In this document: one piece after another, positions 21,904-64,000 of the stretch
Numbering within the stretch: position 1 is the first letter of the stretch
Layout of the letters: every line of letters begins with the position of its first letter
Assembly (NCBI GenBank): GCA_008632985.1
Contig: QPGO01000063.1
Span: 124,001-188,000, forward strand
DNA: 64,000 nucleotides
Reading direction: 5' to 3'
From: Psammoneis japonica
Lineage: Eukaryota
Position numbers and translations under genes: made by a program
Notes under the pieces: model-generated
Told to the model about the DNA's origin: nothing
What the model saw: the letters and a program-made list of their open reading frames with translations, nothing else
Databases searched by the model: none

Positions 21904-21959
21904 TGGGTGATGGGTGCTGAATGCCGCACTCCGAACTGGAACTGCCGGGAAAAAGATGT

Positions 21960-34187: not shown

Positions 34188-35141
34188 TTACTTCCCGCCT
34201 TCCGACTGTCCATCCTGATTGGCTGCGATCTTGTTCAGCTTTTCAAGGATTTGCCCGTTCTGCGCTTGGGTTTGCTCGTTCTGCGCTTTCAGGAAATCAT
34301 TCTGCGCCTTCACGAAATCAATCTCTTTCTTCACGAAATCAATCTCTTTCTTCAGGTTAGTATGAGCCTCCTGGTTTTCTTTCCTCACCTTTGCGAACTC
34401 TTCCTTCACTTCCTTTCTCGTGCTGAAGAAGACGGTGACGGTAGCCAATGGCGATACAACTTTTGCGATGAGTCCACAAATTGTTCCTCCAAAGCTCAAA
34501 ATTTGTGCGACGGTATACACACCGATGCCGATAATGGGAATGGAAAAATTGCAGCACTGTTCGTCCGCCGTTTCCTCTTCCTCTTCCTCGTCGTCGTCAT
34601 TCGGAGCTGTGTCGGTCGCCGGTACAGCCGTTTCGATGCCAACGGTAGTTGAAAACTGGCTCGAAGACGCGGTGCGAGTGGAGTTCGCGTCCTCGTCTTC
34701 CTTCTTGATGCCGCCCTCGGTAGCTTTTCCGTCCCCGAGCGAAGGTGGAGAAGTGGCATCCTCTGCTAGGGTGCTGGAAGATGCATTGCTTGATTCTTCA
34801 AGAGTAACGGCAGGATGCTCTTCTTCTTCTTGAGGAGGAACCACGAAAACAGCAGCAGGTGGGCGCAAACCATCGTCACCCCCAGTTGCCGTAGGAGCAA
34901 GAGTCATGCTGAGCCTATTCTCTTTTCCAGGCTTTGGTGGATTCAAAGTAGCGTTAGACGTTCGAAACAAGTCGGATTCGTTCAGAGTCTTTTCGATGGC
35001 AACAAGAGGGGATCGGCGAGTCGTCGTCCCCGCTTCGGCACGTACTGGAGAAGACCTCGCTTGCAACTTAGAATCCCCGAAGCGTGGGAACGACTTCGCA
35101 TACAAAGGCTTCCTTGCGTTTATGTGATTTTCCTTGTTCAT
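34188..35141 (-). CDS. Orphan family X, copy 3
   Basis: Intact 317-aa ORF. Confidence 0.75.
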   Translation of the reverse strand: MNKENHINARKPLYAKSFPRFGDSKLQARSSPVRAEAGTTTRRSPLVAIEKTLNESDLFRTSNATLNPPKPGKENRLSMTLAPTATGGDDGLRPPAAVFVVPPQEEEEHPAVTLEESSNASSSTLAEDATSPPSLGDGKATEGGIKKEDEDANSTRTASSSQFSTTVGIETAVPATDTAPNDDDEEEEEETADEQCCNFSIPIIGIGVYTVAQILSFGGTICGLIAKVVSPLATVTVFFSTRKEVKEEFAKVRKENQEAHTNLKKEIDFVKKEIDFVKAQNDFLKAQNEQTQAQNGQILEKLNKIAANQDGQSEGGK

Positions 35142-35768
35142 TTACACGATTGTGTTTCGTCGTTGCTCTGGATTGTGTTCTGACGGTTTGAACGAGTTTT
35201 CACAGGCCGAACGGCGGAAATTTGTCGTTACTCCCCTCGTATGTCTCGCTGTAGCTTCTACGACTACTGCGGTAATCCTTGTCGGGGTACTCGCCTCTCG
35301 TATGTCTTACAGTAGATTCTACGACATGGTGGCGGATCTTTCTGTTCGCGAATCGAAGAGCGAAACTGCGCGGCGCGCGCGATCTCCAGGAAAAGATGAG
35401 AGCGGCCGCATTTTTTGAGCATAGCCCATCTCTCGAGAGAACAGGATACTTCTACTAGTAAGCAAAACAACCTGCTTCCGCCTGGATATCGAATACAACC
35501 AGAAACAATCAAGGGAATTGTGCATGTTAGTCAGGATTTCGATGCAACTACCCGTACATTGTCGCACACAAAGAGGAGAACTCACTCTTTTCCTCGAGAA
35601 AACCCTCAGTATTCTTTATCAATTCAACATAATATCAAATTGCTTTCTTTGGTGACAGAAACTGCTCACTGAACCTTGACTAGAGAATTCAAGATCGATA
35701 AGACGATACTGCGACAGCGCCGTTCGGTTCATCTTCGCTGACATTCCTACAAGAAGAATCCATTGATA

Positions 35769-38700
35769 CTATGGATACTCATCTTCGTACTTGCAGATTG
35801 TCTCCCCGATTATGACAAACAGTTCGGCAGTCCCGGCGCGCATGCCACTCTTAATCTGGCGGCTGACCATTGGCGGGCCATTTGGAAATTCTGCTTCGGT
35901 GGAGCACACCAAACGACAAGTATCATTCCCAGTGTTAGTGATAACGTACTGGGTCCACGCAATGAATGTTCCACCGTACGGAACATCGGGCGTTCGTGTC
36001 CTCTTCTTCAAGCAAAAGCAGTGATCATTGTAAACAGTAATCATTGCCGTTTCAAATGCAGTGTTCGCCTTCACAAAAGCTGACTTTGGCATGAGGTAAC
36101 TGCAAAGAGCGCGAGACGGCATAAGAACAAGTGTTAGAACCGCGATTTCATGTCCAAACAACAATGAATCGCTGCAATTACGCACTCTGACTCGATTTCT
36201 GCTCCAACCAAATCTTCGTTGCTGACTCCAGCAGGAAGTTCGGGAAGTCCAATCTCCTCATTGTGATGTGACCATTCTCCGGTGTTGATACTATTGGGCG
36301 AGAGCGCAATGCATAAAACGTTGGTTAGACGACAGACAACAGCGACATCCGAAAAACGCCGAGAAACAATGACGCGCTTACTTTTCGTATTTCGCTTCTT
36401 GCTTCCAGACAGCTTCTGTGATAAAAGACGAGGAATGGTGCAAAATCGCCCAGCGAAGACGTCGGAACCCAACTGGAAGGTCAATCTCAAGTCCGACCAT
36501 TTCCAAGTTCTCCGGAGGTTCAAATCCTGGCGGTGGACTCGGAGGGCCCTTGTCGAACTTGATTGCAGGACCAAGAAGCGGTCCAAGAATTGCGCCCTCC
36601 GCACCTTCTTCCACCTCGAGACGTTTTTGCTTCAAAGTGCGATCATCGGCACGTAGTTCTCGCAGCGCAGAGAGCATAAATGAAGCCTGAAATTTCGCAA
36701 CTTCCACTTTGATTTCCATTTCCATACCCTTCTGTTCAACATAGGAAAATATCTCTATTTGCGGAAACAGGCGAGAAGCACTTTTAGCGCAAAGAGTTAT
36801 CGAGAGACAAGGGAAAAAATCGCCAGTCTTGCAATACTCACCATCGGTCACTGAAGTCAGAATGTACTTCCTCATGGTGGATGGAATCATGAGATACATA
36901 ATGGAGCAAAGTGGCACAGACACGATCCAGTGCACATGATAGAGCCAGGCAAGGCATTGGGCAATGACTTCAAACTTTGTCAGGTGCAAGAGGTGGTACA
37001 TACGCTGCATCCACGTTCTCACCACGCCCAACTTCTTTTCGGGTTCGTCAGCTTCGTCCTGTTTATCTTGCGAACGCTTTTCCTCTCGTAGCTTCCTTTT
37101 GAGCCTCCATTCCCTTCTTCGTTTCGTAACCATTCTGTTCGTGAATCGAATAAGCTTGATCCAGTCAATCTTCTGAACATTGACTGCCAAGACGAAGAAT
37201 GCGCCAACTCTGTATTCAATTTCAGTCTCGATTTCAACGCCGCGTCTCTTCAAGTGAGGTTCCATCAATCTACAAGCGCAAACAAGAAAATGGCAAGGGC
37301 GTTGGGAATGGGTTTAGCTTGGCTCAAACACCAACACTATCAAAAAATATACGTCCCAACGTACCGATACAAATCATTCGACAGCTGCACAGCAATTCGC
37401 CGAGGCGTAAAGTCACTTTGCAGCGCCATCCCCGCCAATCGAACCACGCCAGACTGCGCAATGGCTCGAAACTTTTCAAACCGATCCTCCTCGTTTTCGT
37501 CGGGTGACGAAGTTTGCGCTTCCCACCGCACCTTGGCAAGCCGGTGCAATTCGTTTTCCACAACTCGCGCGGAATTCTTGACAATGACATTGACGTAGAG
37601 GGTCTTGTCATCGTGCACAATATCCCCCAATTCCTTGTCACCCTTGCCTTTGTTGGTTCGGGAGTATTGATCTTGAAATTCCGAACGCTCATCGCCCTCC
37701 TTGATGAGTTCGTAGGCTTCGGCAAATTTGTTTTGCACACGCGACAAGACGCCCTTGCGGTTGGTGCGAAAGCGAATGCCCTTGAGTTTCTCTCGTTCTC
37801 GTTCCCGCTCCAACAAGACGTCATAATAGTGCTTGTCTGCTGCCAAGAGTGACAAGGCTCGTTCCGATTCAATTTCATCATACGTAATGATCTGTGTCTG
37901 AGCCTTGTACACGGTATTGACAAGCGCCTCGTCCGTCAGCACAATGTTGCGTGCCAACTCCGCAGATAACAAAAAGTCGTCTCCGGCTCTCGTGGCAGTA
38001 CCACCAAATGCCGAACGACGGGATTGTTCTTGACTTGCAATAGTGGTCATGTGCACGCTTGTGCTTGTGACACTAGGTGCCACACCATTGGTTAGTTGGT
38101 TCTCGTTCACATCCGAAGAGACACTGTGAAAGTCATCGTTGAAGGATTCTCGGGGCGACGAGAATCCATTTTCCTGACCGAGGCTGTTTCGAAACGAAGG
38201 AAAAAAGGACGCAGCTTCCAATTCTGCTGGGGTCATTGCCGCAGCAGCTGGTGTCTTGAGATAGGTGGGACTCTCCGGGACCAACTCGAGTCGTGTAATC
38301 ACATCCAGAATACACTCATCCTCGTGGCTCTCGGCAGCCTTTAACGAACTAAACGCCTTGCCACAACACCCACAAATCCAAGCATCCTGCATACCATCCG
38401 TCCCACTCCAATACGATTCCGACAGTCCAAACAGTCCGCTGCTTGCACGACTACTGGCAGACGACGATGCGGAGGAGCTCTTTTTGTTTTTTCGCAGCTT
38501 GAAGATTCTTCTCTTCTTCTTGCTCATTCCCGAGACGGTCGTACCATTCTCGGCAATCGACTCTAATTCATAGTAGTCTCCATGATATGCACCACGTTCA
38601 TTCCTCTCCACCGCACCCCGCCTCCATCCCCTCTTTACGGCTCGTTCCGACGAAAGCTCGGATCCTACCGAAGCAGCATCGCTATCACAAGTAGGACGAT

Positions 38701-39196: not shown

Positions 39197-40038
39197 GTAC
39201 CATAAAATCTTGGATACACGGAATTCGGAATTTGTATCTTGCGAATGACCTTTCTTTGGGTGGGTGCGGTGTGGGTCCGCCATGCGCGAAAAATTTTACT
39301 TGCTGTACTTTGCCCACCTTGTGTCAAGTCACTGGAATTGCCTCGATTGCTCCAGTGGCACAATCTCAGCGACAAATTAGTTTGTGCACAAACAGTGCAG
39401 CACACCTGCTGTGCAACTCCTTTCAAAACGTGAGCCTTGCTGTCCCAAGCATGAGCCTTGGCTGCTGCTGCCGTCTTGCTCTCCTCTTTGCCTCTGGCCC
39501 CGACAAATCTCTGCCAGATGCTGCGCCTCCGGCTGTTTTTGGGGCAACGAGTTTTTGAACTCTGCAAGGCACCCAACATCTGGTTTCTCTGAGTGATGTC
39601 AAACAAGCACAAGTGCTGTGCTTCCAGGCTGATCAGCTCGCACGCAAAGAGGAGAGAAGACAGAGTGGGGGGCTTTTGCTTGTGTGCACTCACCCCATGC
39701 ATGGTGCACTTGGGTTGGAACAACTCCACTGCCTTTTCAAGTTGCTGGAATTGCATCCATTGCTCACAATTAGCAGTGGAATGCATCCAACCGGTCTCAG
39801 TGGAAGGAACGGGGGGAAATGGCACAAAAACATTTGACACTATCGAGAATTGACTACATAGAGTTTTTTCACGCGACAGTACGTGGCTTTGATTGAAGAA
39901 CATACAGACACTTTATCCTCATAAAAATTGATGTGCTATCATACGGGTATTCAAGTACATATGCTACATACATGTTTTGAACTGTGACAAGCTCTTTTTT
40001 GTGATAGTCGCAGCAGTTGGTAGATTTTCAACGGCACT
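39197..40038. mobile_element. Putative non-autonomous DNA transposon (~840 bp) with a TpA-depleted core
   Basis: Flanked by the direct repeat ATGGATCA (39189-39196, 40039-40046), with imperfect inverted ends (AGTACCATAAAATCT vs reverse complement AGTGCCGTTGAAAATCT). Only two TA seen between 39310 and 39840. Confidence 0.5.
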
Positions 40039-40422
40039 ATGGATCAAAGAGAACTATTTGAGCAAGTCCCGCTGAGTCGCGCGAGAGTTCTCGCGTGTTG
40101 TTGAAATTATTTAAAAACAATTTATTTTTATCCTTTATAAGAAGCTTAAAATAGGAAACTGTTATCAATATCATGTTTTCTGTCCAGTCTTGGTTCTTGA
40201 TAATGCGAAGGCTTCGTTCGTGCAAGTTTGTGTGCGTTGACGCTATTTCCTTCCCGACCGCGAACATAAAACAGGAAGAGAGAAAGCAGATGAAAGAAAA
40301 CAGTTTATACAGACAATCGAAAAAGAGAGAAGCAACAGATAACTCCTCATAGACTATAGCCAAGAGAGGGAGAGAGACAGAAACAAGAAGCGCAGCTGTT
40401 GATTGGAAAACACAAAATTGAT

Positions 40423-42390
40423 ATGGGGAAGAACGAAAACAAAGGGAGAGTGTCGCCTGATCCAAGTGATGGCGACCTGGAAGGACAACAAACAGCAGAC
40501 GTTGGGGTTGAATGCGCCCCCACAAAGACTACCAATGAAGCAAAGCCCGATGAGGCCGGAAACCTCGAGGGTCGACTTTTCCACCCGACTCAATGGAAAC
40601 GGCGCGGAGTAGTGGTCACGATATGCGTGTTTCTGCTGGTTGTAGCTGCAGTTGTTGCGACGGCTACATTATTGTCACGGACGGACAAGGCATCAAATAC
40701 CGACAGTTTCAACCCAAGTGCTTCATCTCGTACTACGTATTATGGAACGTGCGACCCCGAGACGAACGAAGGCTGTGAAGACGGCAGCACTTGTACCGAG
40801 GCCACATTGGGCACACCATCTCGTTGTGTCTTGCCTATAGGTGCCGAATGTGAGCACTCTTGGGACTGTCAGTCGGATAACTGCTTTGAGGGTATATGTC
40901 GATGCAACACTTTGGACAGCGCCGGCTGTGAAGGATCAGAAGTTTGTGCTGAGAATTACGATGGCGCCCCTGCTTGTGGATGTCATCACGGCGGTCACTG
41001 CGATCAGACGAACCATTGCGTCTTTCCAATGATATACATGGATGTGCCTCTGGGGAGCTGTACTTGCAATCCCGGTACAAATGCGGGATGTTCCAACCCT
41101 CTTGTGTGTATGGAGTTAGAGTTTATTGCCGATTTACCACCCGCATGCTATGCCACGATGGGCGGAGACTGTGCGAACGACTTTGATTGTGAAACATTGA
41201 ACTGTTTTGAAGGATCGTGTCAGTGTAACCCAGGGATTGGGACTGGTAATTATGGATGCAGTGGCGACGATGTTTGTGTGGGGAATAATGAGGATGGATA
41301 CGGTTGTATAGAGGCTGAAGCGGTCTTTGATACGTGCATTCCCGAGACCAATGAAGGTTGTGATGAAGGAGGCACTTGTATCGAAGATAGTTCGGGTGGC
41401 TCACCTCGATGTGTCTTTGAAGTAGGCGCCGAATGTCAGGACTCAAACGAATGCCAGTCCGAGAATTGTTTCGAGAATAGATGCCGATGCAACACCTTGA
41501 CCAACGCCGGCTGTGATGGGTCATTAGTTTGTGCCGAGAATTACGACGGCACCCCTACTTGTGGGTGTCATCACGACAATCACTGCGACGAGACGAACAA
41601 CTGCGTCTTTTCAATCGTCTTCATGGAGGAGCCTCTGGGGTGGTGTGCTTGTAATCCCGGCACAAATGCTGGATGCCCGGACGGACGCCAGTGTTTGGAT
41701 GTAGATTGGATTGCCGATGAGCCGCCCAGCTGCTATTCTACGATTGGTGGAGACTGTTTGTACGACTTTGATTGTGAAACAAACAATTGCTTCGAAGGGT
41801 CGTGTCAGTGCAATCCGTACCTGCTTTGGACCGAAAATCATGGATGCAGTGGCGACGATGTTTGTGTGGGGAATGATCAAGACGGATACCGCTGTGTCTT
41901 CGAAGTAGGCGCCGAATGCCAGGACTCAAGTGAATGCCAGTCCGAGAACTGTTTCGAGGGTAGATGCAGATGCAACACCGTGACCAACGCCGGCTGTGAT
42001 GGGTCATTAGTTTGTGCCGAGAATTACGACGGCACCCCTACTTGTGGGTGTCATCACGGCAATCACTGCGACGAGACGAACCATTGTGTCTTCCCAATGG
42101 TATACATGGATGAGCCTCTGGGGAGCTGTGCTTGTAATCCTGGCACAAATGCTGGATGCCCAGACGGACGCCAGTGTTTGGATTTAGATTTTATTGCCGA
42201 TGAACTGCCCGCCTGCTACTCCACGATTGGTGGAGACTGTTTGCACGACTTTGATTGTGAAACGCACAGTTGTTTCGAAGGGTCGTGTCAGTGCAATCCT
42301 TATATTTGGACCGAAAATCATGGATGCAGTGGCGATGATGTTTGTGTGGGGAATGATCAAGACGGATACCACTGTAGAGCCAATGTCTGA
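40423..42390 (+). CDS. Type II membrane protein with three ~160-aa acidic Cys-rich repeats
   Basis: One TM helix (VVVTICVFLLVVAAVVATATLL) followed by three units beginning CV..GAEC....CQS.NCFE..CRCNT (~40820, ~41405, ~41890). Confidence 0.85.
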   Translation: MGKNENKGRVSPDPSDGDLEGQQTADVGVECAPTKTTNEAKPDEAGNLEGRLFHPTQWKRRGVVVTICVFLLVVAAVVATATLLSRTDKASNTDSFNPSASSRTTYYGTCDPETNEGCEDGSTCTEATLGTPSRCVLPIGAECEHSWDCQSDNCFEGICRCNTLDSAGCEGSEVCAENYDGAPACGCHHGGHCDQTNHCVFPMIYMDVPLGSCTCNPGTNAGCSNPLVCMELEFIADLPPACYATMGGDCANDFDCETLNCFEGSCQCNPGIGTGNYGCSGDDVCVGNNEDGYGCIEAEAVFDTCIPETNEGCDEGGTCIEDSSGGSPRCVFEVGAECQDSNECQSENCFENRCRCNTLTNAGCDGSLVCAENYDGTPTCGCHHDNHCDETNNCVFSIVFMEEPLGWCACNPGTNAGCPDGRQCLDVDWIADEPPSCYSTIGGDCLYDFDCETNNCFEGSCQCNPYLLWTENHGCSGDDVCVGNDQDGYRCVFEVGAECQDSSECQSENCFEGRCRCNTVTNAGCDGSLVCAENYDGTPTCGCHHGNHCDETNHCVFPMVYMDEPLGSCACNPGTNAGCPDGRQCLDLDFIADELPACYSTIGGDCLHDFDCETHSCFEGSCQCNPYIWTENHGCSGDDVCVGNDQDGYHCRANV

Positions 42391-47285: not shown

Positions 47286-48685
47286 CTAGAACCATATAGC
47301 TAACAAAATTGATGTCAAAGCTACCCCCACCACAAGCAAGCTGCCCCGATCTCCAATGCCGGTAGTGGAGTAGGCGTTGGAGGGACTGTAACATGTCCAA
47401 TCAAGATCTACTCGGAATTGGTCACACTCGCCGGAACCGCATTGACTATCAAATCTGCAAGGGCATCCAAGTTCCACCACTCCCGAACTATTGGCGCAGG
47501 ACTCGTAAATGCATTTTCCTGACACGCAATCTTCATCCTTTTCGCAAGTTTCCTTGATACACAATTCATCCACCTTGTCGGCACACAAATTCTGAAAGCC
47601 ACACCTCCCAGAAGCGCAGAGTTCATGATAATCGCGTTCGCACAAGACACCATTTTCAAAGCCATCAGTGCTGATTGGAAATTCGGTAGCATTGCTCAAC
47701 AATGCTTCCACTCGAGATTGGTAGCTGTATGGTGCCGGACCTGCCATGGTGTGCGCTGCAATCTCATTCTGGCGATCAAAAAAGGACGGAGTGAACGTGT
47801 AATTTTCACCCACTCCCAACACCTTGACAGCAGAAGCGTCTTCGCCCAACAAGATAAAGTAACCATAATGGACTGATTTGGAAAAGAAAGTTGGACTGAA
47901 AACGACCGGATCAAACCCAATGTCATCGTCTTCCTCAAATTCTTGCTTGGAATTGACATAGCGAAAGAATCTTTCTGAAATAATTAGGTCACAGCCTGTA
48001 TCGACCGCTGGTGGCTGACCAAAGGTAACAACGGTCGGGCTCATTCTATGTAGCAAAATAGCAGCGTGCGTTGCAGTAGCTCCACCCTTTTTAAAAAGGC
48101 AAAGAGTGTGGATGAGATGAAAGAAGTTCACCAAAAAATTGCTCAATGACGTCAACACAAACTTACCTGACTATGTCCAGTCAACACTACACAATCCTCT
48201 TTGTCAAGAGTACAGTTATCAAAACACGACTGCAAATCAACTCGGCCTTGAATGACTGCTTCTGTGTTGAGAAAGTCGGCAAAACCGGCTCGGCCCTCGC
48301 AATATTCCCCTGTAGTCTCGTTGTTATCCCTGAACAACTGGACATCGTTTAGATTGATATTTTGAGACCAATCATCAAAATTGGCATTCGTCCCACGAAA
48401 CGCAAGGTAGCAACGACCGTCGTTGCCCTTGGCGACAATGGCTTGATCTGGTTCTTCGTTGTAAAACTTGATTTCTACATAATCCGGGTGTTGATACATG
48501 ACAGGATCACTGCCGTTAACAACATATTGCGTAATGTTGGGTTCATATGCCAAGGCTGATAATTTCGCAGCTTCCACGGTTATTTCCATGACGCGTTGTG
48601 TCAGAATGTCGCTGAATCCTTGCACTTGGGACGGATGCAAAAGCACAGCCACGGGTGCTGCCCATGAAATATGTTTCCAAATCAT
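47286..48685 (-). CDS. Secreted or membrane-anchored class 3 lipase, 2 exons
   Basis: Signal peptide, AFRGT, GHSQ|GG nucleophile elbow split by intron 48166-48087, TFGQP, Cys-rich tail and hydrophobic C-terminus. Confidence 0.9.
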
Positions 48686-49040
48686 TCTCGCTATAGAGAG
48701 AGAAAAGTTTCTTCCTGTAACTGATCACAACAATCAAGACACAAAGCTGTGGCCCTTTAAATGCGCAATTGCTGAGTAATCCATATATTATGTGTCGCAA
48801 GTGCAACAACTGCCAACAACCGCCTGAGGCCTGAGTTCTGTTCTGTCATGTAAGCATTGGATCGTTTTCGCACGATCGACGTATGCGGGAAGACTCTGGA
48901 ATAGCGCTATCCAAAGAAGTTCTGTCCTCCAGTGCCTCATGGGGTTTTCCCAGTACAAGTTTAACGAATGAAAGAGACGTGAACTCCATACGCACTGATT
49001 GACAGACTGTTTCCGAACAATGCAATAAAAAAATGGTTCT

Positions 49041-49265
49041 TGTCAACACAGTACGAACTCATGCGCGATTCGCGCGCGCTACGCTTGCGTATGCGATTTC
49101 TTTCATCGGTCTTTTCTCAACTTTTCTCACAATTACAACATCTAGTGTAACAAGACATTAGCAGCTTTGCTGATTATACCGTCATCGTTAGCCCTCTTTG
49201 CTAGCGACACGTCTGCCATTCGACCTCAGTCGACTTCTCCTGGCTCTCAGACGAGAGTCATCGCA
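49041..49265 (+). repeat. 5' LTR
   Basis: Colinear with 56411-56635; 10 mismatches, no indels. Confidence 0.97.
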
Positions 49266-49378
49266 GGCCAGAAGCCCAAGTGTCGCGCTTGATCACTCCT
49301 GTGCTCATCTCTTTCTCTCCGGTGGACGAGAATTGAGCTCTGTACATTTCTGCGCACAATTCTACGTGAGTGTTGCAC

Positions 49379-49785
49379 ATGTCCGAAAGGAACTCTGCGA
49401 CACTTGATGACCTTGTTGAACAACTGCAAGCCCTGCAACTTCAAGAAGTGGAGCTTGTTCGTCGCATTGCCGCAGAACGAGAACGGCAGAATCGTCTTGC
49501 AACACCAACGCAAGCCGGAACTGCTCGTGGAATTGTCTTACAACACCAACGCAAGCCAGAACTGCTCGTCCTTCTGCTTCAACAGCACAAGAACCCGCCG
49601 TTGCGGATTTTCACGTGGGAGACCGTGTTGTCATGACGAACGAAATTTGCAACTTTCGCCGCACCGTTGCTGTCCAAGACCGTCAAGCAACTGTCACTCG
49701 CATTGCAGAACAGCAAGTGTTTGTCCACACGGATGATGGAAATGCCACTAATCGGCATCCGAAGAACCTGCACTTTCTCGCGTAA
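49379..49785 (+). pseudogene. Extra ORF upstream of gag (coiled coil plus small beta-rich domain), frameshifted
   Basis: MSERNSATLDDLVEQLQALQLQEVELVRRI..., then in another frame FHVGDRVVMTNEI...RQATVTRI...VFVHTDDG..TNRHPKNL*. Confidence 0.5.
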
Positions 49786-49790
49786 TTCGC

Positions 49791-51258
49791 ATGCCTGGCA
49801 TCGCAGCGAGCATTCCGCTCCCACCTTCTCCGCCAGCCAGCATGTCCAAAGTTCAAATCAACGGGCGGAAGGTGAAAGTCCGCGCGACGCCGAAAGCGTC
49901 ACAAGACACTCTTGCTGCTCTCTACACCAAGGAGCAGCGGAACCATTTGGATCCTGACAAGCTCAACGGCCTCTTTCTGAAGGCTGCTTCGAAACAGCAG
50001 ACAAAATTTGACCTCCTCAACGTCAACATCAACGATCCCGACAAGCTCGAGGACACTTGTGACCTCGCAATGTCCATCTCAACCATGCGTTCAAACCATG
50101 TTAAGTGTGACATGGATGACGTCTTCACCATCATCGACCCGGATGAACTCACGACTCGATTCCTCGATCACCGCTGCCGAGGTCGCCGCCAGCAACAAAT
50201 GGCACACAACCATGCTTGAGGACCCTGATGGGACTTGGGCAAGCCAAAATCTTCGTCTTGCTCACGACCACTTCGAGCGGAACTCCTCCACAGCGCTGCA
50301 AAAGAAAGTCAACAAGACGCACCTCAAGTGCGCACAGGAGCAGCAGGGCGGACCTCTCTTCTTTGTTGTCATGATGAAACTCCTCCAGAGCAACTCCGAA
50401 GAGGCCGCTCGTCATTTGGTTTCCAACACAACCAACCTCAAGATCATCGACTTTGACGGAGAGGACGTCAGCAAAGTCATCTCTCTCATTCGCGGTGGTT
50501 GTTCTCGACTCGCAAACCTCCAGGATCAGAAGGGTCAGTCAGTCATCCCTGCTGATTTTTTGGAGAACCTCACCAAAGTCTTCCAAACGTTGAGCGTCCC
50601 TGAGTTTAACTCACTCTTCGAACACCTCACCAAGGATTCCAAGACTTCCAAACTCAAGCAATCGGGCTCAACATCCGCAGCAACAACCACCACGGTGGAC
50701 GACATCCTGTCCTTTGCCGAAGGCGAACATCTCACTCTCGTTGCCTCCGATCAGTGGTCCGGCGTGACCACTGAGAAACAGGCGACTTCATTCATCGCGG
50801 GCGTCGTCACCTGTTTTGACTGTGGTGGTCCTCATTCTTTGTCAGACTGCAAGAAACTGGTCGACGAAGCTCGTGTTTGCGCCAACAAGAAACTGTTCTT
50901 TGACGCAAAACGGGCCCAGTGCAAGAACAACTCAACGGGATCCTCCTCTTCCGGTCCCTCCACCAAGACCATTCCCAAGAAATGGCAGCCACCGACTGAC
51001 GCTGAAAAGAATGACAACAGTCGCTGCAATGTCGATGGCAAAGATCATTGCTGCCATTGCAAGACCAAGCGCTGGCGCCCGGTGTCTAAGACGGGGAACG
51101 TTGCTTCAGCTCCAGCAGCTGCACCTCCTCCCGCTCCAGCCGCTGCGCCCGCTCCAGCACCGGCTTCCGCTCCTGTTGCGGATCGCGACCCAGCCACAGC
51201 CAACGTCAAGAAGGAGATGGTCAAAACCATGACCGGCCTCTTCGCCTCCTTCACCTGA
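49791..51258 (+). pseudogene. Copia gag (one frameshift near 50150)
   Basis: QQGGPLFF, LKIIDFDGEDVSK and zinc knuckle CFDCGGPHSLSDC. Confidence 0.85.
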
Positions 51259-54200
51259 AGATTCGGGCACACCTCTCCTCCGGAGCGTGTGGCCCTTTCT
51301 TCTCTTTTCTTCAGCCAACCGTCCGATCCTGGAAGGGATGTCCAGGCTCATTTGTCGGTTGGCCACTTTCTGCTCCTGTGGTTCACTCTCCAGATTCTTG
51401 GAGAGGGAGGGATCGAAGCGGCATCCACTGTTTTGCAGTTGCTGTTTGTCTCAGTGGGTGGATGTTTGTTCTGCTTGCTTCCATTTTCCAAGAATCCTTC
51501 GCTTTCATGGGACGATCTACCCGACTTTGTTGTTGTTCCTTCTCCTGAACCGACCTCTTTTCGTCGTCCTCCTGTTCGACCTCGGACAACACATCATGCT
51601 CAAGCACGCCGCTTGGCTCGGCGTCCAGTTCGAGTCCCACGCAGAGACCCCTTGTGGTCCTTCCTTCAACCAACGACCTGGCGTAAACACCGCCGAACGC
51701 CTGTTCCGGATGGCGCAACAACTGCCGATCCGGATTGCTCCTGTCGTAAATCCAAGTCATGGAAACTCTCAAGATCGAGACGCCGAACCAAACCCAGGAA
51801 AACAAGACCACCTGGATTTGCCTGCGTTGATCCTCAGCAAGAGGCCACAGAAGCCCACTCTCAAATCAAGCACCGCCTGTTGCATCTGCCATCTGAGATG
51901 TGTGAATTCCCTCATGGTGCGACGCCAACTGATTTTGTTGCTTTGCTTGATCCTCTTGGTGACTGCCTGAGGACCAAGTCCTGTGGCTCCTTGACACAAA
52001 CGGAGCCCTCACCTTTTGCACCACCAGACGACCCTGAAGCTTGCGAACTAGAAGAGTTCTTCCGAGTCAAACACCGACTGCTGCACCAAACCTGGATCAT
52101 GTGCGACATGCAGTGCGGTTGTTCGTTAGACGAATTTGTTCAAGGCATTGACCCATTGGAGCAACTCCATTTGATCAAAGCACTTGCCTCTTCCGAAATG
52201 CCACGAGCTTGTGGTCAAGCACCAACGCTGTCTTGCGTTGCAACCAACTTGTCTCGAACGACAACTGCCACCTTTGCGAGTGGTTTTGGTGGAGTGGCTG
52301 TGTTCTCCCACCAGACCATGACTGGACCATCCCATGTTGTTGCATCTGAGCCGGATCCACCATGGCCAACCAAAGATCCAGTGCAACACATCAAGTCCTT
52401 CCGGGATTCTAGGGATCTGGAAGGCTGCCAATGTCAAGCATTGACATCGTGCTTGCCTGTCGACGCACCTGTTGTTCTCAACACTGGAGCATCCTCGTCG
52501 CTCACACCTCACTCAAGCGACTTCACTGGACCGCTGGAACCTGTTAACACTGCCACCATCAACGGGTTGTCTTCCAGCACCCGAGCAGTTGGTCAGGGTT
52601 TCGTGGAATGGGGCACAATTGATTGTTGGAACGTCATCTGGACGGTCCGAACGCGAGCCCACTACGTTCCAGATGCTTCCATTCAACTCTTCAGCCCTCA
52701 AGCCTGTTTTCAAGAGAATGGAAACCAAGGAGAATGTTCAGTGTGTGGCAACAAAGCAACCCTCACTCTTCCGAAAGGCAACACGCTTGATTTCCCAAAC
52801 AACAAGGAAAACAACTTGCCCTTCATGATGATGTCCGAACCGATCTCCGCTGGAGTCACCCAATGTAATTTGGCTCCCGTCAGTGCTAAAGCACGCCTCA
52901 CTTCGTTCCTCTCCGTCACCTCTCAGACCAACCAGAATTTAACACCCGGCCAGAAGGAGCCACTTCTCCTCCATCAGAAACTTGGTCATGCCGGCTTCCA
53001 TCACATTCAACACTTGTGCGCCACTCCACGGGATCCCACCAAATCACACATCATCAAGCCCACTTCACAAACCGTCTCCAGTTGTGCTGCACCGTCATGT
53101 GCTGCCTGTCAACTCGCAAAGCAGAAACGACGAACTCCTGATTGTCGTGGCACGTCCAATCCTCCGCCGTTGACGTTGCGAGAGGGAGATTTGGCACCTG
53201 GTCAACGCGTCTCCGTTGATCAGTGTGTCAGTCGTGTCCCTGGCCATCTTCCGACGACAAAGGGACGCAAACCCAAGAAAGACAAGCACTGTGGAGGCAC
53301 GATTTTTGTTGATCATGCTTCCACCTGTGTTCATCTGACCCATCAAGTTGGTCTCACCGCAGGTGAAACTGTTCATGCCAAGCAGTCCTTCGAGCAGCTT
53401 AGTGACCAATTTGGGGTCCGCATCAAGTCCTGCCTTGCTGATGATGCACCGTTCGGCACCAAGGCCTTCATGCATGACCTCAAAGAAAACAACCAAACTG
53501 TTGATTTTTCTGGTGTTGGAGCTCATCATCAGAACAGTGCAGCCGAGCGCTCCATCCAAACTGTCACCTCATGGGCAAGAGCCATGCTCCTGCACGCCAT
53601 TCTCATGTGGCCCGATGCCGCCAATCTGGAATTGTGGCCTTTTGCCATGACCCATGCGACCCACCTGTGGAACCACATCCCGAAGTCTGACACTCGCACC
53701 GCGCCAGTTGAAATCTTCTCCAAGCAACGATTCGACACTTGCACACATCTACAGCGCTTGCAGGTGTGGGGCTGCCCTGCATGTGTTCTTGACCCCAAGT
53801 TACAAGACGGCAAGAAACTGCCCAAGTGGGACCCCAGAAGTTGCCGTGGCCAATGTCTGGGCATCTCGCCGGATCATTCTGCCAACATTGGCCTCATCTT
53901 GAATCTAACAGCCGGCTGTGTCAGCCCTCAATGTCATGTGGTCTACGACAACCACTTTGCTGCGGCTCCCAACAGTGATTCTGGCGGCTTCTTCCAGGAT
54001 GTTCCCTTCACCGCCGATCTCTGGGAATCCTTGCTCACAGCCGACTCACTGGTTCACAATGCTCCTCCCCAGCCTTCTGACACTGACGACCCTCGCCGCT
54101 GCTTGCCGGCCTTGCACGATGATTGGTTGACCCCCGCAGAGCGCCGTCATCGCGCTAATCATCGAAATGACCGCCGTCAATGTCATCTCCAAAATTCCAA

Positions 54201-56390
54201 AATGGCCTCTCCTGCTGTCCCTGCATCAACCTCTTCCATCACAGCTCCAGAGGGAGAGCTTCCTGCTGCTGAATCATCTGCTGACGATCTAGAATCTGCA
54301 ACTTCAGAGGCTCCAGAGGGAGTCGAGATTGATGAGTTCAGTGATGACAGCGATGACAAATTGTCATTGGTCGATCATCACGACTTGCCAGAGGATCTAG
54401 ACTTAGACTCTGAAGCAGCTGAGCCACCTCAACTGGCTCCGAATGCTGCCACTGCACCAACTCAGACTCAAAGCGGTCGCACCGTCAAGAAGCCAGAACG
54501 CCTGATTGAAGCAATGCATGCTGACATCCGCACTCCGCCAACGAGTTGCCGAATGCCCACAAAAATCCCCAAACGCACCGTCAAGTCGGAAACCCCAAAC
54601 AAACAGTTCTTGATGGCTTTGCATTGGGATGGCATTGCAAATGCACTCCGGTCCAAAGACTTGTGCGCAATGCTCAACCTCTTCAACAAAAACACCGATC
54701 AAGTCCACGGCACACTCGAAGAAATGCACCCTCTTGCCCTCGCAGCTAATGCAAATTCGGCTGACAATCCAACTTGGGAAGAAGCAATGAGTGGCCCTGA
54801 TCGAGCAGCCTGTCTTAAAGCTTGCGACGTCGAAATCGATTCCCTGGCACAAGGCAAGGACGCCTGGGATGAAGTGGATTGACAAGATTGGATGAACGCA
54901 CTGCCGTCCACATGGGCCTTCAAGTGCAAACGATGCCCCGATGGGTCAATCAGAAAATGCAAAGCCCGATTCTGCGTCCGCAGAGACAAGCAATTGGAAG
55001 GTGTCGACTGTTTTGACACCTTTGCTCCAGTTGTCAATTGGACGACCGCACGGCTCATGCTCACACTTTCTCAAATTTTGGAACTTTCGACGAAACAAGT
55101 TGATTGTGTCACCACTTTCGTCCATGCTCCAATCGACAAGGATCCCAAATGGGACACCATGACACCCGAAGAGCGGGAACGCTCTGGCATCTTCGTACAA
55201 ATGCCTCGTGGATGCTCCAAGCCCGGCAAAGTGCTGAAACTCAAACGGACCGTGTGTGGTCTCAAACAAGGACCTCGCAACTTTTTCCTGCACCTCAAGT
55301 CAAAACTTGAAGATGCTGGATTCCAATCGCAAGACGATGTCGATCCATGTCCACTTGCATCTGACAAAGTCATCTGCCTCGTGTGTGTTGATGACACACT
55401 GTTCTTCTCTCCAAAACAAGAGTGCATCGACGAAGTGATCGAGAAACTCAAAATTGATGGCGGTCTGGCCATCGAAGTTGAAGATTCCATCGCAGGTTTT
55501 TTAGGAGTACACATCGAACGCGACACCGACAATGGCACTGTCAAGCTCACTCAGAGCGGCCTGTCCAAATGTGTCGTCGAAGCCCTCAACGCAGGCCATC
55601 CACCGAAGGCCCGAACGCCCGCACCAGCTACTCCGTTGGCCAAGGACACCGATGGAGACCCACCAAATGGAGCCTGTAATCATGCCAGCGTGGTTGGCAT
55701 GCTCCAATGTCTCCAAGGCCATTCTGGGCCAGACATTGCCTGCGCCGTCAGCTCAGCAGCCAGATTTGTTTATGGCCCTCGTCACTCGCATGAACTGGCC
55801 CTTGAACGGATCGGTCGATGCCTGAAGGGTGCTCTGGATGATGGTTTGGTCCTCAAGCCATCTGGGGACTTCAACATTGACGTGTTTGTTGACTCAGATT
55901 TTGCTGGACTGTGGCCTCATGAAGACAAGCATGACCCGGCTTGCATCAAGAGCGAACAGGATTTGTCATTTGCATTTCTAACTGTCCTGTCATTTGGTCC
56001 AGCAAGCTTGCACCCGAGATTGCTCTCTCAACAATGGAAGCAGAGCACAACGCTCTTTCCACTTGCATGAAAACTGTCCTTCCCTTTCTGCGCACTGCAC
56101 AAGCCATTTCCCAAGGCATCGGAGTTGGTCCAGGGACCACCAAGACTGTCCGCACCACTGTGTGGGAGGACAATGCTGGGGCTTTGACTCTAGCTAACAT
56201 GGAACCTGGCCGAGTGACGCCCAGGTCCAAGCACCACGCAATCAAGTGTCGTTGGTTCCGTTCACAGCTCAAACCAAATCGAGTTGCTGTTTCCAAGATC
56301 GCAACAGACTTGCAATGCGCTGACACACTTTCCAAAGGTCTCGTTACGGTTAAATTAGAGGCCATTCGAAAGTTGCTTTGCGGTTGGTAG
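51259..56390 (+). pseudogene. Copia pol (protease, integrase, RT, RNase H), inactivated
   Basis: VVLNTGAS (protease, D>N), HQKLGH..C..C and D,D,E integrase, RT CVDD, RNase H VDSDFAG/EDN. TGA at 54880 and a frameshift near 55955. Confidence 0.95.
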
Positions 56391-56410
56391 CTTCTTCGTT
56401 CGAGAGGGAG

Positions 56411-56635
56411 TGTCAACACAGTACGAACTCATGCGCGATTCGCGCGCGCTACGCTTGCGCGTGCGATTTCTTTCATCGGTCTTTTCTCAACTTTTCTCAC
56501 AATTACAACATCTAGTGTAACAAGACATTAGCAGCTTTACCGATTATACCGTCATCGTTAGCCCTCTTTGCTAGCGATACGTCTACCATTCGACCTCAGT
56601 CGACTTCTCCTAACTCTCAGACGAGAGTTGTCGCA
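56411..56635 (+). repeat. 3' LTR
   Basis: Follows the PPT and is followed by TSD GTTCT. Confidence 0.97.
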
Positions 56636-56969
56636 GTTCTGCACACGCAAGCTTCTTTGGACAGCTGCTGGCCAGACACGACGCTATTCATACCGCATGA
56701 GCCGCACGTGCGGTCCTCGCGCGTGAGGTTCAGGTGGGAGGCTTGTGTTGCAGTGCACACGCGGCACACGGCACTCATTTCTTATTCTTCTTGCTTCTCA
56801 ACTACTGTACTGTACAGTAGTCGTAGTTGCAACAGCTTTCTTGTCTCCCTAAAGAAACACTTACGCGTATTGTATCACTGGCAGAGGTCGAAAGAGGACT
56901 TCCGCCTGTCACTTCTGCCCAAGAGCAAAGAATGATTTACAATAATACTCGTGCTGTTTTGACATTACA

Positions 56970-60784: not shown

Positions 60785-61813
60785 TCACTTTTGATTGAGA
60801 GTCAAGAGCTGATCCAGCTTTTCGTTAATGCAGTTCGCAAGTTCTCCCTGTTGCTTCATCCATGCGTCCTGTTTCTTGTTCCATTTCTCCTGTTTATTAT
60901 TCCATTCGTCCTGTTTCTTGTTCCATTTCTCCTGTTTCTTATTCCATTCCTCCTGTTTATTATTCCATTTCTTGTTTTCTTTCCTCACCTTGGCAAACTC
61001 TTCCTTCACTTCCTCTCTGGCCCCAAAAAACATGACAACAGTTGAAAATGGCGATACAACTTTTGTGATGAGTCCACAAGTTGCTCCTCCGAAGCCCAAA
61101 ATGTTTGAGCCGATAAACGCACAGACGCCGACAATGGGAATGGAAAAATTGCAGCACTGCTCCTCCGTCGTTTCCTCTTCCTCGTCGTCCTGGTGGGGGT
61201 CATTCGGAGCTGTGTCGGTCGCCGGTACAGCCATTTCAATGCCAACATCAGTTGAAAACTGGCTCGAAGACGCGGTGCGAGTGGAGTTCGCGTCCTCGTC
61301 TTTCTTCTTGATGCCGCCCTCGGCAGCTTGTCCGTTCCCGAGCGAAGGTGGAGAAGTGGCATCCTCCACTGGGGAGCTGGAAGATTCATTGCTTGTTTCT
61401 TCATCTTGATTATCAAGAGTAACGGCAGGATGCTCTTCTTCTTCTTCTTCTTCTTCTTCTTCTTCTTCTTCTTCTTCTTCTTCTTCTTCTTCTTCTTCTT
61501 CTTGAGGAGGAACCACGAAAACAGCTGCAGGTGGGCGCGAACCATCGTCGCCCCCAGTTGCCGCAGGAGCAAGACTCATGCTGGGGCTGTTCTCTTTTCC
61601 AGGCTTTGGTGGATTCAAAGCAGCGTTAGACGTTCGAAACAAGTCGGATTCATTCAGAGTCTTTTCGATGGCAACAAGAGGGGATCGGCGAGTCGTCGTC
61701 CCCGCTTCGGCACGCACTGGAGAAGACCTCGCTTGCAACTTAGAATCCCCGAAGCGTGGGAACGGCTTCGCATGCAAAGGCTTCCTTGAGTTCAAGTGAT
61801 TTTCCTTGTTCAT
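60785..61813 (-). CDS. Orphan family X, copy 4 (diverged; poly-Glu expansion, different heptad tail)
   Basis: Same N-terminus as copies 1-3; C-terminal (WN[N/K]KQ[E/D]x)n repeats. Confidence 0.75.
   Translation of the reverse strand: MNKENHLNSRKPLHAKPFPRFGDSKLQARSSPVRAEAGTTTRRSPLVAIEKTLNESDLFRTSNAALNPPKPGKENSPSMSLAPAATGGDDGSRPPAAVFVVPPQEEEEEEEEEEEEEEEEEEEEEEEHPAVTLDNQDEETSNESSSSPVEDATSPPSLGNGQAAEGGIKKKDEDANSTRTASSSQFSTDVGIEMAVPATDTAPNDPHQDDEEEETTEEQCCNFSIPIVGVCAFIGSNILGFGGATCGLITKVVSPFSTVVMFFGAREEVKEEFAKVRKENKKWNNKQEEWNKKQEKWNKKQDEWNNKQEKWNKKQDAWMKQQGELANCINEKLDQLLTLNQK
61435..61503. repeat. (CTT)~23 microsatellite encoding poly-Glu
   Basis: Pure trinucleotide run; 4-5 Glu at the equivalent site in copies 1-3. 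Confidence 0.95.
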
Positions 61814-62143
61814 TTGCACGATTGTGTTTCGTCGTTACCTGGGATTGTGTTCTGACGGTTTGAACGAGTTTCCCTGGTCTTTTTGTTGCATGGGTAACGG
61901 CGGAAAAAACTCCCTTTCGGGTCGTCGTACGTATGTCTCACAGTAGGTTCTACGTCACTGGTCGCGGATCCTGTCGAGTTTCACGAATCAAGAGTTAACG
62001 GCTCTGACAAAGGGGGTCGCTATTATTCTGATTCTGCGGCACTTTATTTGCGCGCTTGCTCCTCTGAATTCTTCTTCAACAACAAGCCCTACTACCGTAC
62101 TAGAGTTCTTTAGATCACTACATCAATAACCTCGCACATCAGC

Positions 62144-64000
62144 CTACTTTTTCGAGGTATTGCCGGTCTTCTTTTTCTTCAGAAATGCAGCAAACATTTT
62201 AGCGCCTGCGGAAGGCGCGTCCTTCCGCTTCTTGCTACTGGTCCTTGACGCCGCCTCCTTGGGTGATCCCGTCGGAGGAGTCTCTGGTTCTGCGTTTGAA
62301 GCAGAGGAGGATACCTTCGTTTGCTTCGCTGGTTTGACTGGGGGTACGTCGACCTTCTTCACAGACAGTCAAAGGGGTAAGAACTAGAATTCCAGAAACT
62401 ACAGCACAAGTAGAAACAACGGGTTCGCGCTTACCAATAGTTCCTCTAGTCCCAGCTCCTCAAGGACAGACTTTTTGACTTTCCAAATAACTCCACCACT
62501 GGGAATTCGTTTCTTTTCCGCAATCGCATCAAGCTTCCTAGTCGCGTGTGCTCGACTAGGAATGATCTCCTGATGAAGCGTCCGCAGTTGTTCTACAATC
62601 TTGTCTTTGGACGGCAAGGTACAATTGTGAACAAACTGAGCAAAAATTCTCAAATCCTCCTTGCTCATTTCCTGCGAGTTCGTCGTGCCTTTCCCGGTAG
62701 CCGACACTTTTGTCGATCCATCTTTTACACAGGACGGGTCTGAGGATGACGGTGTACACTCGTCCACGAGGTGCGGCGGGAAGGCATCCCAGCACAATTC
62801 CAAATTGGGAGCGCAAACCTGGCCCTCGTGAGACGCAAGCAATTCCATAGCCTCGGTAGGGCATACACCTTCGACAAATTCCTTGGCATCTTCGTCCGTA
62901 ATTTGATCCTTGGAAAGCGGAAGGCCCCCCATTGCTGGAGCAATCACACAGACCGTGCTGAGCTCCGTAACCGTCTTGTCGTTCCTTTCCTCTAATTTCT
63001 TTTTGCGCAAAGCCATGGTTTCCAAATCAACCTCTTCTCCGCCAAGATCATCGTCGTGGGCCAACCACCCGTCTTGGTAGTTGTAGACGCGGGTATCGCC
63101 CTCTTCATCATCCATATTGTCCTCCTCATCATCGCCCGCGTCAGATTCACAGTCTTCTCCAGGATCGTCATCACCTTCCTCCCACTCAGCCTCGCTGTCT
63201 TCATCGTAATTCAAAAATTCCGTCTCCTTGCCAAAGGGAGTCCGGCCAGTCACGGCAGAACTACGAGGCTTGCTCCACGTTCCATGGTACGGCGGACGAT
63301 AGTCTTCGTGAAAACGGAAAAACTTGTACTTGTTTGGCACATTTATTTCTCGTTGCTCATCGTATGGCTGTTCACCAAAGGGATTGTCCGACAGGACCGT
63401 GACAAAGACAGTGACAGAGACTTTTTTCGTTTTACGGGTGCGAGACGCACGTGCCCGATCCGAAAGCTTGGCAAACACGGGAGCATCCAAATGGCGGTCC
63501 CTGGAATCAATCAACGAACGAAAGTGCTCCGTGTCAAAGGACGAGCCCGCGTTATTATGACTCTGTGCAACCTTTTTCTCGGTCGCTTTCTTCTTGGCAG
63601 GCGTCGCCTGGGACGGCGCCGTGAAGAACGATTGCATCATGGCCCGTTGCTTTTGGGTTTTTTCCTCCGTTTTTTTGGCCTTGGCTTCCTTTGCCAAACG
63701 CTCCCGTTTGCGTTCTGATTCTTTCTCCTCCTTTTGCTTGCGCTTGAGCTCGGCCGCCTCTTGCTTCTTTCGTTCCTTTTCAGCCTTTTCCTCTTGCTTC
63801 TTTCGTTCCTTCTCGGCCTTTTCCTCTCGCCTGGATTGCTCCGCTTGCTGCTTTTCCAATTGCTTTTGCGCCTTTTCCTTTTCTTTTTCCAGCTGCAGTC
63901 GCGCCTTGGCTTGTTCCTTTTGCTTCTTGGCTTCCAGTGCGAGCCGCTGTTTTTCCGCCTCGCGTTCATACTTGAGCACCTTTTCCTCTTCCGTACTGAT
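62144..64000 (-). CDS. CHAF1A: Chromatin assembly factor 1 subunit A (p150/Cac1); 5' end outside the window
   Basis: KER coiled coil, PIP-like QRAMMQSFF, F.EDYRPPYHGTWSK, NYDEDSEAEWEE and acidic domain; intron from 62434 to ~62355. Confidence 0.9.

Follow-up and report, generated by a model that had tools for sequence, protein, structure and literature searches.

Probable TpA-directed hypermutation of an integrated Ty1/copia retrotransposon in the diatom Psammoneis japonica

The window analysed here is a stretch of 64,000 nucleotides from the diatom Psammoneis japonica (GenBank assembly GCA_008632985.1, contig QPGO01000063.1, positions 124,001–188,000 of the forward strand), and all positions are counted from its first letter. 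Positions 49041–56635 are occupied by a complete Ty1/copia long terminal repeat (LTR) retrotransposon of the diatom CoDi-like type, sited between two host genes. After insertion, the DNA of this element was probably attacked in place by a mutation process with local targeting, which turns the dinucleotide TpA into TpG or CpA. The element carries the signature of such a process: the changes run from A to G and from T to C, both strands are affected, the effect is confined to the element, and the process was active after insertion.

The loss is most readily seen in the encoded proteins. A preliminary description of this DNA, made from the sequence alone, had noted that tyrosine is nearly absent from the gag, pol and reverse transcriptase frames, and this holds when the frames are read from stop to stop: the gag frame (49981–51258, 425 aa), the first pol frame (51259–54882, 1207 aa) and the one that follows (54883–56070, 395 aa) contain 0, 2 and 1 Tyr, respectively, or 3 in 2030 codons. 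The Tyr content of 120 homologues is 0.77–3.79%. In total 624 polyprotein homologues were found at E ≤ 1e-10, some of them from Nitzschia inconspicua and Cylindrotheca closterium, with the best being 58% identical, and a full-length alignment of the pol of the element with 60 copia polyproteins was obtained. Tyr is present in at least 70% of these 60 homologues at 18 columns, and there the element reads Cys ten times, His three times, Tyr twice and Asn, Phe and Thr once each. Sixteen of the 18 conserved tyrosines are thus gone, while every other residue class is retained at 56–100% (Fisher P = 8e-10). The same description listed eight motifs in which an ancestral Tyr was believed to have been replaced. 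For seven of them the consensus of the 11 closest homologues bears this out (YVDD, YGLKQ, DYFDTF, (Q)YLKG, GCPVYV, YASV and EAEY), and the eighth, KYKAR, has to be dropped, as the homologues have Leu at this position.

At the nucleotide level the whole element retains 69 TpA, with an observed-to-expected ratio (O/E) of 0.16, as compared with 0.445 in the remainder of the window. The 7145-bp interior between the LTRs retains 44 TpA where 395 are predicted by base composition (O/E 0.11), and TpG and CpA are in excess (O/E 1.50 and 1.32). Among environmental copia loci, 68 of 69 have a TpA O/E of 0.36–0.88, and the deficit in the interior is significant (Poisson P ≤ 5e-22) even against the lowest O/E found among intact relatives. 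The TpA signal begins and stops within the element, and the neighbouring host DNA is normal, with a TpA O/E of 0.57 and 0.53 in the two flanks. The earlier statement that the flanking genes, named as a lipase and a G-protein-coupled receptor (GPCR), are normal is therefore upheld as regards composition, the GPCR open reading frame (ORF) having 21 Tyr in 1067 aa; the lipase label did not find confirmation in Pfam for two ORF pieces.

A depletion of this kind could be adaptive, if a functional lineage had been selected against TA, for example to evade a TA-directed host factor. Some relatives show the conservative replacements that would be expected in this case. One homologous copia polyprotein (P0042) has 11 Tyr in 1430 aa and carries Phe at 14 of 26 conserved Tyr columns, possibly a selected way to lose TAY codons. 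Several changes of Tyr to Phe are also present in an unrelated metagenome contig (L065, 2158 bp, a distant copia integrase region), which contains a single TpA (O/E 0.01) and has a CpG O/E of 0.37; at the Tyr positions of its homologues a mix of Phe, His, Cys and Leu is found. The P. japonica element, however, has Cys or His at invariant positions, including the catalytic YVDD of the reverse transcriptase, and is broken by a frameshift and by an in-frame stop codon that replaces a conserved Arg. Moreover, its non-coding interior is equally stripped (6 TpA in 49266–49980), while its LTRs are not. Selection against TA is accordingly an extremely unlikely explanation for this element.

The direction of the changes was established with the homologue consensus as the outgroup, using columns with at least 70% agreement. 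Eighty-five single-step replacements were usable, after 29 multi-step and 7 ambiguous ones had been set aside. They comprise 24 A>G changes, 19 of which follow T and 3 follow A, 18 T>C changes (13 preceding A), 18 G>A changes (14 following C) and 3 C>T changes (2 preceding G). The eight classes of transversions together account for 22, including A>T (3), A>C (1), T>A (2) and T>G (4) at A:T pairs, the outgroup being distant. Since 32 of the 85 changes are A>G or T>C at TpA and 16 are CpG transitions, two processes are visible, a dominant one converting TpA to TpG or CpA and a weaker one converting CpG to CpA or TpG. The A>G and T>C events are interleaved within a few bases of each other, for example at 53780 and 53783, and no strand-coordinated run is seen. 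The substitutions tabulated by context, as had been suggested earlier, thus show the anticipated enrichment at TpA (32 of 42 A>G and T>C changes), and the proposal of a context-specific A>G mutator that acts on both strands of the element and leaves the neighbouring genes alone agrees with these counts.

The process also discriminates between the bases that follow the target adenine. Among the 44 surviving TpA of the interior, none is preceded by A and only one is followed by T. Strand-symmetrised frequencies of TAT, TAC, TAG and TAA are 0.07, 1.54, 2.17 and 2.38 per 1000 trinucleotides in the element, as opposed to 13.6, 10.3, 9.2 and 11.7 in ten intact relatives; in a second TpA-poor block of the window (2500–13250, described below) they are 0.19, 0.47, 1.02 and 2.23. 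T[A]T is removed most, then T[A]C, and then T[A]G and T[A]A. Because T[A]T and T[A]C are preferred, and because attack on the A of a coding-strand TAY codon gives A>G, Tyr codons turn into Cys more often than into His; in the 26 columns with at least 60% Tyr in the homologues, the element has 14 Cys versus 4 His (binomial P = 0.03). By the genetic code, A>G and T>C can never make a stop codon, so that the long open frames of the element need no selection and are a by-product of the process. The sole stop inside pol, at 54880, is a change of CGA to TGA, a CpG transition.

The frames, LTRs and target-site duplication (TSD) had been described as nearly intact. The TSD is indeed perfect and the two LTRs differ at 10 of 225 positions (96% identity), although the LTRs are better viewed as having been spared. 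They hold 11 and 14 TpA (O/E 0.74 and 0.91), and their CpG content is high (O/E 1.5–1.8). All ten differences between them are transitions, and the LTRs are 100% identical in a purine/pyrimidine alphabet; the probability of ten transitions out of ten is 0.005 at the transition fraction of 0.587 seen in a host repeat of the window. The differences fall at seven dinucleotide sites, six of which pair TA with TG, CA or CG, or CA with TG, while the seventh pairs TG with CG. As the LTRs of a retrotransposon are identical at insertion and now differ by such transitions, the process must have worked on integrated DNA.

The private changes of the 5′ LTR at former TpA sites, five in number, all lie at or beyond 49169, in the part adjoining the interior. 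At the other end, the last ~70 bp of the interior keep four TpA and the 3′ LTR lost TpA at only two sites. From these positions the affected domain is estimated to extend from about 49165 to 56340, being narrower than the element. Beyond its limits are the ~125 bp at the outer side of the 5′ LTR, the final ~70 bp of the interior and almost the whole 3′ LTR. The preferred reading of this escape of the LTR ends is a target domain defined by chromatin or RNA that stops short of the ends of the element, each of which has a host gene no more than a few hundred bases away.

Reads are available for comparison from one public sample, of which run X1 contains 77% of the sampled words of the window. Contigs made from X1 match both junctions between element and flank with 0 differences, and an internal piece of 480 bp is recovered from them at a depth of 64.9 with 2 differences, the depth of the flanks being 58–63. 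The exact junctions and the single-copy depth count against an artefact of strand-discordant base calls, and the depth of the 480-bp piece counts against a second copy that shares its pattern at that piece. Summed over the element, the depth of X1 is 235–1103, as compared with the 58–63 of the flanks, and the copia family is thus multicopy. There are 1515 places at which X1 differs from the window, 1114 by transition and 401 by transversion. Within the 40 of these ~1500 places that were listed, 25 are interchanges of TA or CG with TG or CA, and six sites have CG in all other copies and TG or CA in the window. The states may be reciprocal: the window reads CA and another copy TG at 55601–2, and the window reads TG and another copy CA at 51455–6, which indicates that the copies were hit independently. 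Another copy also carries, in its LTR, TG or CA where the window has TA. One X1 contig links 49014 to 56648 with 14 unmatched letters, at a depth of 57.9. This contig may represent a haplotype that lacks the element, in which case the insertion would be polymorphic and young, and nothing firm is drawn from it.

These reads bear on the view that the pattern is a sequencing or assembly artefact, in which a modified base at TpA (and 5-methylcytosine, 5mC, at CpG) is misread in silenced DNA and the true sequence is TA. A palindromic modified site misread strand by strand would yield a random mix of TG and CA, as is seen, and the effect is limited to DNA that is presumably modified and silent. However, strand-discordant calls would halve the k-mer depth and break the contigs, whereas the X1 junctions are exact and the 480-bp piece is present at flank depth. 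Differing copies assemble as separate contigs with differing states, and the metagenome contig L065, which comes from an unrelated assembly, bears the same signature. The element has in addition suffered an ordinary frameshift and the CGA to TGA stop. An artefact is, on this evidence, very improbable.

The signature is not limited to the retrotransposon. The 10.8-kb block at 2500–13250, which is unrelated to the copia element, is even poorer in TpA and is also depleted in CpG (Table 1), and it shows the survival order of the element, TAT < TAC < TAG < TAA. A Pfam scan of 23 read-through frames of the block, with TGA translated as X, returned no families, a self-comparison in the purine/pyrimidine alphabet gave no LTR-like or inverted repeats, and the period-3 signal is weak. 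It nevertheless holds the relic of a protein-coding gene on the minus strand (9238–10123), in which 0 of 6 conserved tyrosines are kept (Cys 2, His 1, Phe 2, Leu 1) and 6 of 12 conserved arginines are now Gln, Cys or His. Homologues of the relic are typically ~500 aa long, and a Pfam scan of 8 of the 150 listed gave, for some of the eight, only sub-threshold matches to N-terminal P-loop NTPases; one homologue carries an N-terminal Crinkler fusion. Within the block, a sub-block at ~8500–10000 retains more CpG, which suggests a mosaic of ages.

A third, 394-bp patch at 39378–39771 has a like signature and may be a solo LTR or a transposon fragment. The 242-codon open frame around it probably exists only because the TA-containing stop codons are gone. 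A tract at 63556–63969 was considered as a further patch and rejected: it is free of TpA, yet is a C/T-rich low-complexity coding sequence with normal CpG and TpG. The host tandem repeat at 20800–38600, three copies of ~5.7 kb, serves as a negative control. Its transition/transversion counts (37/27, 56/38 and 93/66) show no TpA bias, and as this triplicated sequence is untouched, duplication alone does not trigger the process. The ORFs of the repeat have no Pfam matches, and related pieces are found at 60968–61873. Three other tandem units of ~530–585 bp, 87–95% identical in the purine/pyrimidine alphabet, are present at 40747–42376 within a 676-codon ORF (40360–42390) that has no Pfam match.

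The joint loss of TpA and CpG might be attributed to error-prone repair, in which 5mC that is deaminated in a methylated transposon is repaired frequently and recruits a polymerase of the Pol eta type that mis-inserts G opposite T at WA sites, as in the second phase of antibody hypermutation. Pol eta prefers A in the TA and AA contexts, and the decay of CpG does accompany the loss of TpA in the element and has run to completion in the older block. The Pol eta-like candidate named in the preliminary description nevertheless fits poorly. The AA dinucleotide is not depleted, with an O/E of 1.232 in the element against 1.23 elsewhere, and only 3 of the 24 polarised A>G changes follow A. Transversions at A:T are few, the LTR differences are transitions in ten cases out of ten, and the loss of TpA precedes that of CpG instead of trailing it, which makes this repair pathway quite unlikely as the source of the changes.

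Editing before integration deserves more attention. The RNA or cDNA of the element might have been edited in the course of retrotransposition, by an A-to-I activity of the ADAR type or by an APOBEC-like adenine deaminase of single-stranded DNA, and integrated thereafter. In retroviral cDNA, as studied for APOBEC3G, the LTRs are single-stranded only briefly, and the interior of the element is ~8-fold more damaged than its LTRs; the insertion also looks young, given the perfect TSD and the similarity of the LTRs. On the other hand, an RNA route predicts A>G in the coding strand only and a minus-strand cDNA route T>C only, whereas both are seen at TpA (19 and 13, respectively) and are interleaved. 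The LTRs diverged from each other by like changes, necessarily after integration, and the single-copy depth of the 480-bp contig gives no indication of a second copy with its pattern there. The preference for T, then C, then G or A on the 3′ side is opposite to the 3′-G preference of ADAR, and the block at 2500–13250, with its relic of a gene that does not belong to a retroelement, bears the same signature. Finally, the targets of a comparable process in the chlorarachniophyte Bigelowiella natans are integrated DNA viruses that mutate in vegetative growth (Mettrop et al. 2026, bioRxiv 10.64898/2026.01.13.699255). Editing prior to insertion is therefore judged unlikely, and mutation of the integrated element is preferred.

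Several observations weigh against mutation in place at TpA as the whole account. The LTRs kept ~25 of their ~32 ancestral TpA, as compared with ~1/5 in the interior (Fisher P = 2e-11); a uniform process acting after insertion would have stripped the LTRs too, and part of the interior damage could thus predate the insertion. Two LTR sites show two adjacent transitions, TA versus CG at 49090–1/56460–1 and TGG versus TAA at 49241–3/56611–3, unlike a single TpA step, and the site at 49214–5 reads TG, TA and CG across copies, which does not fit one TpA-only step either. Ten of the 42 polarised A>G and T>C changes lie outside TpA, although some of these may be ordinary divergence from an outgroup that is 58% identical. 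With regard to the reads, run X1 represents one sample and may be the data of the assembly itself, so that it is not fully independent, and the comparison with other copies site by site covers the 40 listed places out of ~1500. The precedent in B. natans is a preliminary one, being a single preprint study on a different lineage.

In its organisation the element is a conventional one (Table 1). Gag and pol share a single frame (49981–56070) that is broken by two in-frame TGA, at 51256 and 54880, and there is one frameshift near 55935–55956. Pfam places the gag_pre-integrs and SH3_retrovirus domains at residues 564–897 of the frame that starts at 51259, and RVT_2 (E = 6e-20) in the next ORF. By eye, no tRNA-complementary primer-binding site was recognised from 49266 on, no comparison with tRNAs having been made. 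A tblastn search of the 64-kb window with 7 homologues returned this copia element alone. The downstream host gene encodes a class-C GPCR with a periplasmic-binding domain, and its nearest Atlas cluster is commonest in Bacillariophyta; other ORFs of the window correspond to ordinary nuclear genes according to Pfam (tubulin, bestrophin and a PHD-finger protein). A contig from a second run, X2, skips 80 bases at 48086–48165 on the minus strand, and their CT..AC ends correspond to a GT..AG intron of the upstream minus-strand gene. This run, labelled ‘DNA?’, thus holds spliced transcripts; there is almost no X2 over the element, and it was not used as evidence of expression.

Table 1. Coordinates of the retrotransposon, its parts and the other tracts of the window that were compared with it.
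Feature	Position	Strand	Remarks
TSD, left copy	49036–49040	+	GTTCT; same 5-mer as 56636–56640
5′ LTR	49041–49265	+	225 bp, TG...CA
Hypermutated domain (approximate)	49165–56340		limits are estimates from TpA positions and gaps and from LTR differences
gag-like frame	49981–51255	+	425 codons, 0 Tyr, no Pfam match; closed by TGA 51256–51258
pol frame	51259–56067	+	same frame as gag; protease region, integrase (gag_pre-integrs, SH3_retrovirus), RVT_2 reverse transcriptase; from Pfam, homologues and tblastn
In-frame TGA	54880–54882	+	column is Arg in 58 of 60 homologues; CGA>TGA
Reverse transcriptase active-site motif CVDD	55384–55395	+	TGT GTT GAT GAC; homologue consensus YVDD
RNase H part, shifted frame	55935–56390	+	152 codons, 0 Tyr; frameshift near 55935–55956; TAG stop at 56388
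Polypurine tract	56402–56410	+	GAGAGGGAG; abuts 3′ LTR; read from sequence
3′ LTR	56411–56635	+	225 bp
TSD, right copy	56636–56640	+	GTTCT; same 5-mer as 49036–49040
Second block, unrelated to the copia element	2500–13250		10.8 kb; O/E of TpA 0.057 (42 left), CpG 0.24, TpG 1.78, CpA 1.79; edges sharp
Protein-coding gene relic in the second block	9238–10123	-	378 homologues, best E = 4.5e-54, 45% identity; 0 Tyr in 302 aa
Third patch, like signature	39378–39771		394 bp; 1 TpA (O/E 0.05), CpG 0.30, TpG 1.80, CpA 1.68
Host tandem repeat (negative control)	20800–38600		3 copies of ~5.7 kb, 94–97.6% identical; TpA ordinary; transition/transversion ~1.4

The step proposed here would be an A:T to G:C transition of an adenine that follows T, on either strand, at a rate far above background, by which TpA would become TpG or CpA. 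As to its chemistry, deamination of adenine to hypoxanthine appears most likely, and an enzyme of the ADAT2/TadA family or another deaminase might carry it out. Targeting would probably be by chromatin state or RNA guidance, within a domain slightly narrower than the element from which the LTR ends would escape, and the role of the process would probably be defence against foreign DNA. The ordinary decay of CpG to TpG or CpA is envisaged to proceed alongside and more slowly, so that older targets, such as the block at 2500–13250, would lose both palindromic pyrimidine–purine steps. A dead element would retain its long open frames in the absence of selection. A rate like that in B. natans would remove TpA ~1000 times faster than ordinary substitution, which would fit an element that is otherwise near-undamaged.

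In a wider and more tentative interpretation, for which the chances are estimated as somewhat short of even, TpA-directed adenine editing of chromosomal DNA would be a conserved defence of the stramenopile–alveolate–rhizarian (SAR) group, present in rhizarians and diatoms and aimed at silenced retrotransposons and integrated viruses. It would act in domains delimited by chromatin or RNA that spare the LTR ends, the order T[A]T > T[A]C > T[A]G/T[A]A pointing to a single enzyme, and, being faster than the decay of 5mC, it would kill an element quickly and leave its frames open.

Diatoms rank among the major primary producers of the sea, and their transposon load is dominated by elements of the copia type. 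Elements affected in this way keep long open frames and are liable to be annotated as genes, and dating by LTR divergence overestimates the age of those that are exposed. Tyr-less ‘polyproteins’ rich in Cys and His, and likewise TpA-free blocks, offer a means of recognising the process.

Repeat-induced point mutation (RIP) of ascomycetes resembles the process seen here in that it is restricted to transitions, affects mobile DNA, prefers one dinucleotide, acts on both strands and inactivates its targets. RIP, however, is a C>T process (mainly CpA to TpA), which creates TpA and lowers GC, whereas in the diatom element TpA is destroyed and GC rises. The earlier statement that neither RIP nor 5mC decay can explain the pattern remains valid in this respect, with the amendment that CpG decay is also present. 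RIP is moreover triggered by duplication in the sexual phase, whereas the triplicated 5.7-kb repeat of this window is untouched. The label ‘inverse RIP-like’, used in the preliminary description, is thus misleading, the more so as one of the targets in B. natans is single-copy. Repetition is insufficient, as the untargeted host repeat shows, while the copia family itself is multicopy.

Hyperediting by ADAR is similar in its A>G changes, its preference for a 5′ U or T and its clustering. ADAR is not known outside metazoans; it acts on RNA and would affect one strand of a retroelement, whereas here both strands are changed, the LTRs diverged after insertion and the 3′ neighbours preferred are T and C. 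Editing of cDNA by APOBEC3 is likewise a deamination by which the host kills retroelements, and one in which the LTR regions are least exposed. Unlike the strand-symmetric changes at the adenine and thymine of TpA, it is directed to cytosine (G>A in the plus strand) and is strand-specific. The element thus lacks the features by which RIP, RNA editing of the ADAR type and cDNA editing of the APOBEC type are defined. Decay of 5mC at CpG accounts for 16 of the 85 polarised changes, the CGA to TGA stop and the CpG-poor block, but it cannot remove TpA. Diatoms possess a DNMT4 that is related to fungal RID and whose function is not known (PMC9998398).

The preliminary description knew of no characterised mechanism of this kind in diatoms, and this holds as far as the literature was covered: full-text searches, including searches for terms within PMC2806351 and PMC8147415, returned no report of such hypermutation in this group. 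A precedent exists in another eukaryote. In mutation-accumulation lines of B. natans, TpA to TpG/CpA hypermutation of integrated viral DNA has been observed experimentally (Mettrop et al. 2026, bioRxiv 10.64898/2026.01.13.699255). According to the main text of this preprint, 231 of the 302 nuclear mutations in 15 lines fell in two integrated viral regions, of a giant virus and of a virophage; A>G and T>C changes made up 230 of the 231, each of them at a TpA. This corresponds to ~6e-7 mutations per site per generation, ~1000 times the background, and was seen in 11 of the 15 lines; one target, derived from a nucleocytoplasmic large DNA virus (NCLDV), is single-copy and transcriptionally silent. 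TpA-poor coding sequences of B. natans are enriched for reverse transcriptase and DDE domains. As the mechanism, the authors of the preprint put forward deamination of adenine in DNA, for which an ADAT2-like enzyme is their candidate.

The signature has thus already been described experimentally in another SAR alga, and the present finding is not categorically new. Within the literature searched, no earlier evidence was found of the signature in a diatom or on an LTR retrotransposon. The main text of the preprint contains no mention of diatoms, trinucleotide context, CpG or retrotransposons, its supplements lying outside this comparison. The two systems differ in host and target, a rhizarian with integrated viruses there, a stramenopile diatom with an LTR retrotransposon and an unclassified block here, the latter known from sequence alone. 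They also differ in depth, the Rho of 0.45 in the NCLDV region being less extreme than the TpA O/E of 0.11 and 0.06 in the element interior and the second block. The hierarchy of 3′ neighbours, the sparing of the LTR ends and the decay of CpG are seen here and are not described in that main text; the 3′ preference, the bounded domain that leaves out the LTR ends and the insufficiency of repetition are new constraints on the mechanism. In both hosts TpA undergoes near-exclusively A>G or T>C transitions, on either strand, only foreign DNA is affected, the neighbouring sequences are normal and the footprint is poor in TpA and rich in CpA and TpG. The diatom element matches every sequence-level feature of the B. 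natans process. The occurrence of this signature in a stramenopile and in a rhizarian points to a widespread eukaryotic defence by DNA editing, opposite in direction to the usual GC>AT bias.

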